IMG/VR virus record: IMGVR_UViG_3300025598_002259
Coordinates: 5,876 to 69,875 of that record
Length of the DNA stretch: 64,000 bases
Source: a virus
Reading direction: 5' to 3' (one strand)
Shown: piece by piece, positions 54,731-58,305 of the stretch
How positions within the stretch are numbered: position 1 is the first letter of the stretch
Layout of the letters: the number at the start of each line of letters is the position of its first letter
Translations under genes and position numbers: made by a program
The notes under the pieces: model-generated
Told to the model about the DNA's origin: nothing
Databases searched by the model: none
What the model saw: only the letters and a program-made list of their open reading frames with translations

Positions 54731-55546
54731 TTAGATTGATTTAAGACGAACGCCAATTAAACTAGCTAAACGCTGTTTCATCATTTTCTTGATCATTTTG
54801 TCATCAATTATAGATGCACATTTGAAGCTAGCATTAATGCTGTGACAAGTTTCACAGGCATCGCTAGTAGCAGGATGTCCCGGAGCATAGTCGACTTTAC
54901 CTAATGCAGGATGATGTGATCCATCATGGCAGCTTACACAACCGGTTGTAATACCATTGTGAATTACATTAATTGGAATATGCCAATCAGCATTAGTATG
55001 CGTAATACTTTGATTAGTATCCATTGGAGTATGGCAAGTGCCACATTCTGCAGTGGTTACAATGTGGTTAATATCCTTACCCATTGCTCCGTAGCTGACA
55101 AAATTACCATTGTGGCATGAACTACAAGCCTGTCCACTGACACTAGAGTGGGTCATGGACCACGATGCAGTAAAGCTTGTGGTATTATGACAAGCATCGC
55201 AATTAGTATTACCGATTGGTGGGTGATTGGCCGAACGTCCAATAGTTTGTGCAGAAATCTGCCCAGTAGGGCTACCATTATGGCAAGTTGCACAAATTTT
55301 TGGAGTACCTAGATAGATGCCACCAGCATGACAACTGGCGCAACTACTGCACTTACCAGTAGATAAGTGCGCGCCTGTTAACGGAAAATTCGGGTGAATG
55401 GTTTCATAAAGACTGCATTCAGCAGCATCAGCGGTATCTGAGAACATCAACATTGATCCTGCTGCTACTGTAGGCACAGTAATATAGGATAACGCTAATG
55501 CAAGTGTCATAACCATTGAAGTTAAGAGCGTTTTAATTTTTTGCAC
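54731..55546 (-). CDS. multiheme c-type cytochrome (7 CxxCH)
   Basis: Signal peptide; CASCH, CATCH, CDACH, CSSCH, CGTCH, CVSCH, CETCH; FPLTGAH. Confidence 0.92.
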   Translation of the reverse strand: MQKIKTLLTSMVMTLALALSYITVPTVAAGSMLMFSDTADAAECSLYETIHPNFPLTGAHLSTGKCSSCASCHAGGIYLGTPKICATCHNGSPTGQISAQTIGRSANHPPIGNTNCDACHNTTSFTASWSMTHSSVSGQACSSCHNGNFVSYGAMGKDINHIVTTAECGTCHTPMDTNQSITHTNADWHIPINVIHNGITTGCVSCHDGSHHPALGKVDYAPGHPATSDACETCHSINASFKCASIIDDKMIKKMMKQRLASLIGVRLKSI

Positions 55547-55601
55547 GATAGCAAACCTCCTCTAGGTTTCAACTATTTAGCAAAAATAATAGTATAAGCA
55601 A

Positions 55602-56129
55602 CTATCCGTCGAACTGAGAACTGTTAGGACTATGGCAATAATTACAATCAACACTAGTTACTATAACTTTAACACCATTCTTTGTCACAGTAGTAGGATG
55701 CCCGTTGCCTTTACCCTGCGCTCCATAGCTAGTATATTGACCATTATGACACCCATCACATCGAACAGTGGGATAGCCCGTATTGTGTATCATGGTTTGA
55801 GTAATACCGGTTAGGCTATTAAATGCAGTAGTATTATGGCATCCCGCACAATCTAATAATAGGGTAGGTAAATGTTTCGAACTACGACCTACTGTCATAC
55901 GACTAGGATCACCATTATGGCAGGCAATACATGTTCTAGGAGTTCCATTCCAAACAGCCGCACCTGCAGGAATATGACAAGTTCCGCAACTAGTACATTT
56001 GCCTGTGCTTAGATGAGCACCAGTTAACGGCCACAAAGGGTGTAATTTCTCATATGCAGTACATTCTGCACCTAATACTTTAGGAGAAATTAATAATAGA
56101 AAAAATAAAACTATAGTCCTAAAAATCAT
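55602..56129 (-). CDS. multiheme c-type cytochrome (5 CxxCH)
   Basis: Start reassigned to MIFRTIVLFFLLL (signal peptide); CGTCH, CIACH, CAGCH, CDGCH, CNYCH; WPLTGAH. Confidence 0.9.
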   Translation of the reverse strand: MIFRTIVLFFLLLISPKVLGAECTAYEKLHPLWPLTGAHLSTGKCTSCGTCHIPAGAAVWNGTPRTCIACHNGDPSRMTVGRSSKHLPTLLLDCAGCHNTTAFNSLTGITQTMIHNTGYPTVRCDGCHNGQYTSYGAQGKGNGHPTTVTKNGVKVIVTSVDCNYCHSPNSSQFDG

Positions 56130-58305
56130 GTCTAAATCCGATATAAAAACTTTGATTTGTATTGGTTGGAGTATTATATAACACATCATTAGTTTTTGTC
56201 AACGATCTTGAATATTGCGCTTCGAGAGTAGTTTTATCGCTGATAGCATAAAACCCTCTTAATAATGCAGATATTGTGTCTATTTTACCATAATTTTCAT
56301 TGATAGAATCATATCTAAGAATAGTTGAAATACTGTTTCTATTCTTATCGCCGAATTTATAATTGTCAGCAAATGTAACATAGGATGAACGTCTACCGCC
56401 AGTCGAATCGTTAACAGCAAATTCTATATTATTATTAATAGATCCGATATTTTCGCCTTTTAAGTGTGTAGTTAATGAATAGTTTTGTTTGTCGCCCACC
56501 TGTATTGGTACTGATGCAAAATTTGAATTTAAATTAAATCCCGGAACAGTAGATAAATTAGTTGATTGCGCATCTATTGTTAATTCCCAATTTTTATTAA
56601 TCTTTTCTCTTAATCCTAACACAGTTGATGTTGCAATAGGAGTAGATTTATCAATATAACTATATATTTCGCTAGCTGTTAATCCAGATTTAAGTAGTAG
56701 ATCCCCGATCGAGTTATAATATTGTTTATCTAATGATAATTCGCCGAGATTAAGTGCAACATCTCCATACGGCATTGGGGTACGTCGTCTTTCAAATATA
56801 GCAAACGCATCGAAGTTTTTGGCATAGTAAGTACCTTGGAAAGAAATCAAATTAAGACTACGATAAACAGTATCGTATTCGGTTCTTAATAAGAAACTTT
56901 CTTTGTTTGTTCTATAATCTACGCTATTTCCGATAGCCATACGTTCTAATAATCCGTCAGCTACTCCTCTATTAAAATAAATTCCTGTACCCCAATCATT
57001 GTTAATTCTCCAATCAAATTCAACACCTTCAAATATTCTTTTAGTTTGAGATCCCGATCCAGTGATAGGGTTACCAGCAGCTAATGATAATTTTAAATCA
57101 TCTGTAATTCTAATATTAGTAGATAGCCCATCAAATTTTCCAACAGCTCCTGCTACACTAGATTGTCTTCCTGCGCGAATATTATATCCTTTAAATGTAT
57201 TAGCGAAGTCTACATAAGCATTTGATAGATTTGTTCTATTACCATTTGTTTCACTAAAGTCTTTTACTTGTGAAAATCTCACACGAGCTGATAATTCATA
57301 TTCATTGTGTGTTTCTTTTAATGAGGCTTGTACGCCTGAAATTAAGTTAATTTGTTCTGCTTTTTGAGTGCTGCCTTCATTAGAATTTTTAGTTACATAA
57401 AGGTAATCTGAAGTGTTTCCATTAAAATCAAAACTATCACCTTGGTGAGGTGTTTTTGTTTTATTAATTTTACCTATTGTAAATCCTGTAGGTTCTAATA
57501 TTTCTAATGACATTAAACGCTGTCTTACTCGAGTTCTATCTTCATCATCTTCTGTGTATAGTGCTAGATAACGCTGATATTCCTTCATAGCTTTATTATA
57601 ATTCTTTGATTTTTCGTAAGCATAACCTAACATTTCGTGTGCTTCTTTTGCATCTGCAGGAGATTGTGTAGAAATAATAGATTTTAAATCAGCAATGGCT
57701 TGCTCGAATGTTCCTGATCTTTCTAACAATAATGTTTTGGCTTCTGCTAATAATTCTTCAGCAGGTCTATTATCAAATACAACAATAGGTTGTTTAACTC
57801 CATCATCGTCGTCATCAATATTAGGTTTTTCAGCTTCTAAAGTAATAGGATTTGTATTAATTGTATGTGCATTACCGGTTAAGAAGAATCTAGAAAGTTT
57901 AGTACCTATAGATTCTTTTTTTATCTTAGGAATTGTCGTAGGAATATTTTCTAAAACAGAGTTAGATTCTAAAGTAGAATTAGCAGCTTCATTTATTATA
58001 TCATTATTTGGAACAGATTCTTTGACATCGACACAACTAGTTGCATATAATGCAGTAGCTAATAGAGCCGCAATTTCTTTTTTTAGTAGTCGAGATTTAG
58101 TTTTTTTGTCACTAACTACTTTTTGTATAGGTATCGAAACTGTAACTGTTTTTTTAATTTCTATCTTACGATTTTGTTCAGAAAGCTTCTGTAATGAATC
58201 TTCTAAATTATCTTTGCCGGAAAGCGATGATAATAGATTAGAGAAATTATCTTCATTTAGAAGCTGTTCAAAATTATCGAGACTGAGAACAGAATCGTGG
58301 CTCAT
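56119..58305 (-). CDS. TPR-containing outer-membrane beta-barrel (porin-like) protein
   Basis: TPR (EAHEMLGYAYEKSKNYNKAMKEYQRYL); ~430-aa amphipathic beta-strand region (IRAGRQ, KFDG); C-terminal YIGFRHDF BAM-type signal. Confidence 0.75.
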   Translation of the reverse strand: MSHDSVLSLDNFEQLLNEDNFSNLLSSLSGKDNLEDSLQKLSEQNRKIEIKKTVTVSIPIQKVVSDKKTKSRLLKKEIAALLATALYATSCVDVKESVPNNDIINEAANSTLESNSVLENIPTTIPKIKKESIGTKLSRFFLTGNAHTINTNPITLEAEKPNIDDDDDGVKQPIVVFDNRPAEELLAEAKTLLLERSGTFEQAIADLKSIISTQSPADAKEAHEMLGYAYEKSKNYNKAMKEYQRYLALYTEDDEDRTRVRQRLMSLEILEPTGFTIGKINKTKTPHQGDSFDFNGNTSDYLYVTKNSNEGSTQKAEQINLISGVQASLKETHNEYELSARVRFSQVKDFSETNGNRTNLSNAYVDFANTFKGYNIRAGRQSSVAGAVGKFDGLSTNIRITDDLKLSLAAGNPITGSGSQTKRIFEGVEFDWRINNDWGTGIYFNRGVADGLLERMAIGNSVDYRTNKESFLLRTEYDTVYRSLNLISFQGTYYAKNFDAFAIFERRRTPMPYGDVALNLGELSLDKQYYNSIGDLLLKSGLTASEIYSYIDKSTPIATSTVLGLREKINKNWELTIDAQSTNLSTVPGFNLNSNFASVPIQVGDKQNYSLTTHLKGENIGSINNNIEFAVNDSTGGRRSSYVTFADNYKFGDKNRNSISTILRYDSINENYGKIDTISALLRGFYAISDKTTLEAQYSRSLTKTNDVLYNTPTNTNQSFYIGFRHDF

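Follow-up and report, generated by a model that had tools for sequence, protein, structure and literature searches.

Can a virus supply its host with a path for electrons across the outer membrane? The question is raised by a group of three genes found in 64,000 nucleotides of viral DNA (positions 5,876 to 69,875 of the IMG/VR record IMGVR_UViG_3300025598_002259), the whole of which is hereafter called the window; the record itself is a linear fragment of 69,875 bp that is rated as 21% complete. On the minus strand of positions 54731-58305, we find three tightly packed and co-oriented open reading frames (ORFs), which encode a predicted outer-membrane barrel protein followed by a 5-haem and a 7-haem c-type cytochrome. 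This arrangement had been noticed in an earlier note made from the letters of the sequence, where it was proposed as a candidate porin plus multihaem cytochrome conduit. Pairs of this kind, such as MtrAB, MtoAB, PioAB and Pcc, consist of a beta-barrel and a multihaem cytochrome and move electrons across the outer membrane. The proposal has gained support in our analysis from a barrel family that is linked to cytochromes, a homolog of an inner-membrane component, the synteny between phages and a model of the barrel. The barrel family is tied to multihaem cytochromes well beyond the source phage, including a bacterial cluster with cytochromes of 21 and 47 haems. We estimate a probability of about 0.6 that the module would serve as a trans-envelope electron conduit.

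The properties of the two cytochromes are reflected in their haem-binding motifs. The smaller protein (55602..56129, minus strand, 175 aa) contains five and the larger (54731..55546, minus strand, 271 aa) contains seven CxxCH motifs, and both exceed the gathering cut-off of the Pfam family Cytochrome_C7 (PF14522, 24.8 bits) with scores of 32.9 and 39.9 bits. Since homologs of the smaller protein all start at an internal Met, 55602..56129 is the likely gene instead of the listed ORF, which starts from 56189 (55602..56189), and its ATG overlaps with the stop codon of the barrel gene within ATGATTTTTAG. The two proteins are 38% identical over 191 aa (E 8e-41) with an N-terminal block in common, and the smaller aligns to the first five haem sites of the larger, by which they are paralogs, as had been suggested. 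In both cases, a hydrophobic stretch resembling a signal peptide, as judged by eye, precedes a conserved AEC sequence, in line with the signal peptides that the earlier note had described. Across 20 aligned homologs, the 7-haem protein shows complete conservation of its seven CxxCH motifs and of seven additional His and three additional Cys residues, a pattern that fits bis-His electron-transfer haems. The phage proteins contain about 35-39 residues per haem. The 7-haem cytochrome is kept in every phage version of the module. Homologs of the smaller protein contain 4-6 CxxCH motifs and their gene is absent from some phage lineages; its only Pfam match to an MtrC/MtrF domain is below threshold. 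No maturation gene of the CcmF/CcsA type (PF01578) was detected in any of five related phage records, compared to matches in 9 of 14 control genomes, which agrees with the described absence of ccm genes from the window. The basic C-terminal tail of the 7-haem cytochrome varies among homologs. Contigs from other freshwater runs diverge at or near the 3' end of its gene (54722 and 54596-54710), with a loose end (X8), a 198-base skip (X5) and clustered substitutions, and this divergence matches the variable tail; a variant or joint at 54722 is found in both X5 and X8.

The third protein (56119..58305, minus strand, 728 aa), a predicted outer-membrane protein, ends with the sequence ...GFRHDF and thus with a Phe. 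It comprises an N-terminal extension of about 70 residues, a hydrophobic segment (~78-92), a disordered linker of about 90 residues, TPR-like helices (182-269) and a barrel (291-727). In an AlphaFold2 model calculated with 19 homologs, the encoded protein folds as a large beta-barrel of about 22 strands between residues 291 and 727, which is preceded by five confident helices at 182-269, whereas residues 1-175 are disordered. The mean pLDDT of this model is 68.7, with most 10-residue blocks from position 181 at values of 70-95 and dips at ~271-290 and ~511-530. The description as a TPR/beta-barrel protein ending in Phe is thus borne out with respect to barrel and terminal residue but weaker for its TPR part, where five helices were modelled and the matches to TPR and BamD-like families in Pfam and NCBIfam (~residues 176-264) are all below threshold, with nothing found for the remaining residues; the helical domain of the model corresponds to only about 2.5 repeats. 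In the PDB, the fold of the barrel resembles generic outer-membrane barrels only (MOMP, the ushers FimD/PapC, AlgE and the Occ family, TM <= 0.45), and PHROGs contains no family for any of the three module proteins. The N-terminus of the barrel protein consists of a conserved piece, a basic stretch and the hydrophobic segment, which ends in a Cys. Some homologs carry a zinc-ribbon domain in place of this piece and shorter ones start with an ordinary signal peptide. The protein might either undergo cleavage at the Cys or remain tethered to the inner membrane while its barrel resides in the outer one.

An informative indication of a shared role of these proteins comes from the conservation of their neighbourhood. 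A scan of 1.84 billion representative proteins placed the barrel in a family of 938 clusters at E <= 0.001, with 705 remaining at 1e-10 and 56 at 1e-30. Annotations of its distant members are limited to TPR, AMIN, SPOR or zinc-ribbon domains, and the clusters of these members are labelled in the atlas as bacterial hypothetical proteins. In 18 of 19 loci (found on 18 distinct contigs), the barrel gene is immediately followed, in the same orientation, by a cytochrome ORF with at least four CxxCH motifs, the exception being a contig that ends 198 bp past the barrel. Conversely, a barrel homolog of 27-49% identity is found directly upstream of the cytochrome gene or genes in nine of ten further viral loci, of which the tenth begins at a contig end. 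This order, sometimes followed by the gene of an inner-membrane protein, recurs in about 20 IMG/VR contigs, where different lineages contain either a pair of cytochromes (with 4-6 haems, then 7) or the 7-haem cytochrome only, and it holds for barrels of 26% to 81% identity. The search for homologs and their surroundings that the earlier note had called for thus recovers the linkage between barrel and cytochromes in phages and in a bacterial cluster.

This linkage bears on the possibility that the cytochromes fulfil a periplasmic redox task such as storage, detoxification or the feeding of a host reductase or oxidase, with the barrel being unrelated and acting in the masking of a receptor against superinfection or as a membrane tether. 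The N-terminal extension, the hydrophobic segment and the long linker could indeed tether inner and outer membranes, and bacterial relatives of the barrel carry AMIN or SPOR domains, which have a peptidoglycan-binding role. Huge phages also encode many outer-membrane barrels, for which receptor masking was proposed in a recent preprint (10.64898/2026.10.24.761521). However, at every locus with enough DNA, including bacterial clusters with giant cytochromes, the genes of barrel and cytochromes are direct neighbours of equal orientation and in many cases overlap, and such conserved adjacency is hard to explain other than by a joint function. We therefore regard separate functions of the two components as quite unlikely.

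A tree of 52 hand-chosen barrels (16 viral, five from named bacteria and 31 of unknown origin), taken from several hundred matches and rooted at its midpoint, contains a branch with an SH-aLRT of 99 that splits all 16 viral proteins (together with 15 of unknown origin) from all five of the named bacteria (together with 16 of unknown origin). This topology would fit a single old capture and later diversification in phages, although a midpoint root and unlabelled rows do not amount to proof.

The bacterial cluster, termed L021 and the most distant of the loci with a barrel homolog, relates the module to a known class of systems. It encodes, in this order, a membrane protein of 331 aa, a 21-haem cytochrome, a barrel homolog of 759 aa, a protein of 149 aa and a 47-haem cytochrome. 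The barrel homolog, which is listed at NCBI as a hypothetical protein of a metagenome-assembled genome of Gammaproteobacteria, is 26% identical to the phage barrel, and a comparison of the phage barrel family with this porin in hhalign gave a probability of 99.0 (E 5.5e-18) over 390 columns, extending from the TPR-like part through the initial two thirds of the barrel. The best match of the phage 7-haem cytochrome in this locus is the N-terminal part of the 47-haem protein (32% identity, 234 aa, E 4e-22), along whose repeats it aligns repeatedly, with weaker similarity to the 21-haem cytochrome (E 1e-7). The membrane protein contains two WX3HX13H motifs and an SGXXG motif. The protein of 149 aa (11786-12235 of L021, plus strand), located between the porin and the 47-haem cytochrome, is an ORF without Pfam match.

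According to He et al. 2017 (PMC5566968), the predicted system PCC3 consists of an inner-membrane protein of about 300 aa with five helices, which carries WX3HX13H twice and SGXXG, a porin, a periplasmic cytochrome with a median of 21 haems and an extracellular cytochrome with a median of 34; Hoover et al. 2023 (PMC10734462) give ranges of 21-27 and 10-35 haems and still refer to the system as 'predicted'. Since L021 shows every feature of PCC3 stated by He et al. 2017, we consider it as PCC3-like, and it is against this cluster, identified by ourselves, rather than against published PCC3 reference sequences that homology was evaluated.

The relationship extends to the inner membrane. A homolog of the 331-aa protein, with a length of 149 aa, is encoded on the same contig as the module (G000:C1:1003-1452), at a distance of about 59 kb from the latter and 4.4 kb ahead of the window start. 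Both WX3HX13H motifs and SGXXG are retained in this homolog, as identified by regular expression, and five hydrophobic helices are seen by eye. Its only Pfam match, to DUF4405, remains near threshold (25.0 vs a cut-off of 26.7 bits). Searches with the L021 membrane protein found homologs in five of ten viral records. The respective gene lies directly upstream of the barrel in G002 and directly downstream of the 7-haem gene in G003 and G006, where barrel, cytochrome or cytochromes and membrane protein form one string of genes; it thus adjoins the module in three phage lineages (L028, L031 and L054). Directly upstream of the 149-aa gene in the source phage, we find a small gene resembling an outer-membrane barrel (197 aa, with a signal-like N-terminus, a terminal Phe and a weak Pfam match to OMP_b-brl), and this pair (G000:C1:1003-2050, the small gene being located 3.8-4.9 kb ahead of the window together with its partner) is conserved in a 328-kb relative (G001; L034 912-1947). 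Taken together, a relationship of this phage-borne module to PCC3-type clusters is highly probable, and by the homology of barrel, cytochromes and membrane protein, PCC3 rather than MtrAB/PioAB is the closest known system.

The same similarities have to be weighed with respect to a different function, where the barrel would act as a translocon or anchor that exports small cytochromes or displays them on the surface, as is the case for Slam-type TPR-barrels with lipoproteins. The cytochromes would then be active outside of the cell, for instance in reductive iron uptake that provides iron for phage enzymes such as its class Ia ribonucleotide reductase. Such a role would suit the TPR-plus-barrel architecture, the presence of both the alpha and beta subunit of ribonucleotide reductase in the phage and the closer similarity of both cytochromes to the 47-haem protein of L021 (E 4e-22) than to its 21-haem protein (E 1e-7), as the larger class is predicted to be extracellular in the PCC3 papers. 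It would also be in accord with the comparison of the inner-membrane motifs to the ferric-reductase transmembrane domain found there (He et al. 2017, PMC5566968). Yet neither Slam (DUF560, TPR_Slam) nor any secretion family matches at E <= 0.01, and the cytochromes do not appear as lipoproteins by sequence, with the conserved Cys not located at the +1 position of a lipobox. The conservation with a membrane protein of the type that interacts with the quinone pool is moreover better suited for a respiratory chain. We thus consider a translocon unlikely and retain the electron conduit as preferred assignment.

The described conclusions depend on the viral nature of the DNA. The window carries genes for the two ribonucleotide reductase subunits, an exonuclease, an endolysin-like protein and other PHROG families. 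The module and its flanks are syntenic in the 328-kb relative, which is rated as 92% complete and whose barrel is 77% identical, and in several shorter contigs. The flanks comprise a giant glycosyltransferase gene together with the endolysin-like gene on one side, while small conserved ORFs and a 91-aa gene are found at the opposite end. A different location, beside homologs of the window genes 5025-18621, is occupied by the module in a 327-kb relative. A T4-type Gp23 capsid family is present in six of ten records with the module, among them the three with completeness ratings of 92-100% and one that has direct terminal repeats and a length of 369,145 bp. The gene is not found on the window's own 70-kb fragment, and the six records consist of the 77-81%-identical relative G001 and five others. 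Capsid proteins of Vibrio phage 2.275.O, Cronobacter GAP32, Pectobacterium CBB and Sinorhizobium Phosso share 67-71% identity with that of the 328-kb relative, based on which the hosts are probably Gram-negative Proteobacteria. The window is thus probably part of a freshwater jumbo myophage, with relatives of 266-369 kb and a T4-type capsid near the group of GAP32/CBB/Vibrio 2.275.O.

The continuity of the module with phage genes, whose confirmation by read mapping the earlier note had advised, is reflected in contigs from other sequencing runs. Parts of the stretch are contained in 13 freshwater metagenome runs, all of DNA and with no RNA run among those listed, nine of which include at least half of its words, with four of these nine being possibly the source. 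Contigs of four other runs are identical in sequence and bridge the junctions from cytochrome to cytochrome to barrel (54910-56667) and from barrel to endolysin (57987-58488, X8 record 24); these Logan contigs are short and no single piece spans the whole stretch.

A segment of host DNA, either introduced by chimeric assembly or residing on a host island that was mistaken as viral, would be in line with the 21% completeness of the linear record, the bacterial origin of the family and the G+C content of the cytochrome genes, which with 0.394 is slightly above the ~0.32-0.36 of their flanks. It is contrasted by the same phage genes flanking the module in independent contigs, including the 328-kb record, by the presence of T4-type capsid genes in records that contain the module, of which one has terminal repeats and a completeness rating of 100%, and by the contigs of other runs that bridge the junction between barrel and endolysin. 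In addition, a set of 185,579 genomes representing bacterial and archaeal species was scanned twice, with a single-protein pattern (47 pattern matches) and an alignment pattern (25), and contained no relative of the close clade, for which both patterns are specific, with distant bacterial relatives not being sought. Since many independent viral contigs show the same synteny with phage genes, we consider it very improbable that the module is a chimeric host insert.

If the module is indeed a conduit, we envision its function as follows. During infection, the phage would express the barrel protein, which would be exported by the Sec system of the host and inserted into its outer membrane by BAM, together with the two small bis-His cytochromes, which would follow the same export pathway and be matured by the cytochrome c system of the host. 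The 7-haem cytochrome, either alone or with its 5-haem paralog, would reside in or at the barrel to carry electrons across the outer membrane, and the five-helix protein of the inner membrane, with its two His pairs presumably binding two b haems, would establish the link to the quinone pool or a cytoplasmic donor. Electrons could either be dumped on Fe(III) or humic substances or be taken from Fe(II), with flow conceivable in both directions. As a pay-off, the infected cell might be kept energised or redox-balanced in oxygen-poor lake water. This habitat is suggested only by the label 'freshwater metagenome' of the runs and by He et al. 2019 (PMC6344600), who described many putative porin-cytochrome genes in a humic lake, in a main text where phages are absent. 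As a wider and tentative proposal, to which we would assign somewhat less than even odds, jumbo phages of freshwater Proteobacteria may keep their own diversified lineage of the smallest known porin-cytochrome conduits, apparently derived from a single ancient capture. Its minimal unit would consist of a barrel of about 22 strands and one 7-haem wire, with the 5-haem paralog and the membrane protein with two b haems as optional parts, and infection would allow cells to acquire, or to switch, extracellular electron transfer with iron or humic matter as target.

Several observations weigh against a function as conduit. The numbers of haems, 7 and 5, are below the 10 of MtrA and far below the 21-27 and 10-35 of PCC3, and a chain of seven haems may be too short to span both the barrel and the periplasm. 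The lumen of the barrel could be plugged by a helical insert (514-554), which is defined with low confidence in the model. MtrB is not among the best 50 matches of the barrel model in the PDB, and among the viral structures of BFVD we found generic phage porins only (TM <= 0.40, with better scores over short alignments). The barrel protein lacks a classical N-terminal signal peptide, as about 70 conserved residues precede its hydrophobic segment. The inner-membrane gene is located outside of the module operon in the source phage and no homolog was found in the two most complete of the other records (G004, 95%, and G007, 100%). The presence of machinery for maturation and insertion is assumed for the host, a structure model of the 7-haem cytochrome is too poor for use (pLDDT 53.8), and PCC3, as described in both papers, is a bioinformatic prediction of which no member was experimentally tested (PMC5566968, PMC10734462). 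A haem-free prediction of the complex between the barrel (170-728) and the 7-haem cytochrome (40-271), calculated with alignments and without controls, resulted in ipSAE values of 0.00 and 0.05 compared to a mark of 0.32; this modelling result counts as neither support nor counter-evidence.

The surroundings of the module contain further genes of potential relevance. Directly upstream, and in the same position in the relatives L007 and L003, lies the endolysin-like gene (58324..59625, minus strand), with an N-terminal part containing HExxH and a GH19 lysozyme-like C-terminal part. It is preceded by the giant multidomain gene (59652-63998, minus strand), conserved at this place in relatives, which encodes at least 1388 aa, is open at the window end and combines two GT1-type domains and several of GT2 type with an FkbM methyltransferase domain. 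A pectate-lyase-like gene, resembling a tailspike or depolymerase, is found at 47675-49315 (minus strand) and a tail-fibre-like gene with a Peptidase_S74 chaperone domain is located near the module in L007 (34-1839, plus strand). The earlier placement of the module among virion and late genes is thus partly shown by these neighbours, one of which is found in a relative. A sequence resembling a sigma-70 site matches at 12/12 positions (TTGACA, 18 nt, TATAAT; 56173..56202, minus strand) inside the 3' end of the barrel gene, upstream of the start of the small cytochrome. As a promoter for the latter it is a lead only, as a second 12/12 site is found antisense at 58022, and the 25 promoter-like sites across the region are no excess over the 23.5 in shuffled sequences.

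More distant in the window (37467..38768, minus strand), an oxidoreductase with 4Fe-4S and FAD/NAD(P) domains (Fer4, Pyr_redox_3) is 54% identical to the product of a gene beside the PCC3-like cluster in L021. It could, speculatively, act as cytoplasmic electron donor or accessory of the conduit, or simply be a host-like gene. The protein is present in two of five phage records searched and was thus dropped as fixed part of the module. Three additional observations concern other regions of the window. The G+C content of positions 28001-30000 reaches 0.466 compared to flanks of ~0.33, over a gene (28600-30006) matching phrog_850 ('RNA-binding protein', E 5e-153), which may be a recent acquisition. 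A tmRNA gene with the tag peptide AANDDYFGDIALAA was called by ARAGORN at 40917-41237 (minus strand, with an asterisk mark) and overlaps with the end of an HNH-like ORF (40257-40970). Finally, an adenylate/guanylate-cyclase-like gene (11771-13798, minus strand) encodes a protein that shares 60% identity with its counterpart in the 327-kb relative and 40% with the proteins of Methylophilales phage Melnitz and Pelagibacter phage HTVC008M, which is a further link of the window to phages.

In a general context, our analysis suggests that viruses may be able to rewire the electron exchange of their hosts with iron or humic matter. Most auxiliary metabolic genes known from viruses encode single enzymes or subunits. 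If the conduit assignment is correct, the virus would supply pore, haem wires and membrane entry point, which could change the electron acceptors or donors of the infected cell, and it would constitute the first viral auxiliary system for extracellular respiration. Part of the signal of 'extracellular electron transfer genes' in lake metagenomes would then be viral, with consequences for the iron and carbon cycling of humic and stratified lakes, whose genes of this kind had been assigned to bacteria. The phages would in turn depend on cytochrome maturation and barrel assembly of the host late in infection. With two or three short genes compared to giants of 20-50 haems, the module would provide a small version of PCC3 that makes the question of conduction in these systems directly testable and could offer a compact natural part for bioelectronic engineering.

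A comparison with established systems underlines these distinct features. The module follows the same general logic as MtrCAB, MtoAB and PioAB, in which a large barrel is combined with a multihaem wire in the periplasm (~33-39 residues per haem) and cytochrome maturation is provided by the host. It differs in its partners of 7 or 5 haems compared to 10 in MtrA, in its ~22 predicted strands compared to the 26 of the MtrB barrel and in the absence of a match to the Pfam family MtrB_PioB (PF11854) at E <= 0.01. A fused cytochrome-porin as in Cyc2, where one polypeptide joins a single haem to a barrel, does not apply, as the cytochromes are separate genes and the ORFs with CxxCH motifs listed for the relatives of this locus comprise these two but not the barrel ORF. 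Exporters of the PgaA/BcsC/PelB type were set aside with no PgaA_barrel or BcsC-type Pfam match at E <= 0.01 and cytochromes as adjacent partners; a cluster with PgaA barrel appeared only at rank 16 in the atlas with a score of 0.91, which we regard as a lead only. Generally, readings of the TPR-barrel as exopolysaccharide exporter or as Slam were dropped since family matches are missing and the partners are always cytochromes, with the neighbours in case of Slam not being lipoproteins by sequence and no match of the barrel to DUF560/TPR_Slam. Among solved structures, the Geobacter dodecahaem cytochrome GSU1996 (PDB 3OV0) is the best sequence relative of the 7-haem profile (E 2.4e-4). Both have repeated c7-like units. 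The resemblance is weak and covers only part of the sequence, and GSU1996 is a soluble protein of the periplasm that is not known to have a barrel partner.

Among mobile elements, the Borgs of Methanoperedens carry multihaem cytochromes. According to the respective reports, soxD is carried by sulfur phages (PMC8190135) and amoC together with a NapC/NirT cytochrome by freshwater phages (10.64898/2026.06.18.733297). An identity with the latter was considered and dropped; amoC (PF04896) was not found in five related records, and the control genomes were also without match. These known cases concern either single subunits that feed host pathways or archaeal elements that were not shown to be viral, whereas in the present case barrel, cytochromes and membrane protein could form a whole conduit. 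Outer-membrane barrels of 6-22 strands were described in 18% of huge phage genomes, many from freshwater, in a preprint in whose main text the words cytochrome, haem, porin and electron are absent (10.64898/2026.10.24.761521); its screen required an N-terminal signal peptide, of which the barrel described here has no classical version. In a full-text literature search that covered few subscription journals and no supplements, neither a porin-cytochrome system nor a multihaem conduit was described for phages, and neither the DNA of the region nor the barrel and 7-haem proteins match any of 50,697 GenBank phage records; the earlier note had likewise been aware of no characterised phage example.

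The closest correspondence is thus found in PCC3. As in these clusters, an outer-membrane barrel gene adjoins genes of multihaem cytochromes, and the barrel has a homolog in the porin of the PCC3-like cluster L021. A c7-like repeat type is common to the cytochromes of both, and the phage contig encodes an inner-membrane homolog, with five helices by eye, that retains SGXXG and both WX3HX13H motifs. In contrast to PCC3, with its 21-27 and 10-35 haems, the phage proteins contain 7 and 5 (and 4-7 in relatives) and thus do not share the feature of very many haems; the inner-membrane protein, with 149 instead of about 300 aa, has neither the N-terminal part nor the long loop, and its gene is unlinked from the module in the source phage and lacking in some others. 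The order of genes also differs, and the carrier is a virus. What is new here is therefore a module of the PCC3 type, a kind of system that is itself still only predicted, on a new type of carrier and assembled from the smallest parts so far.

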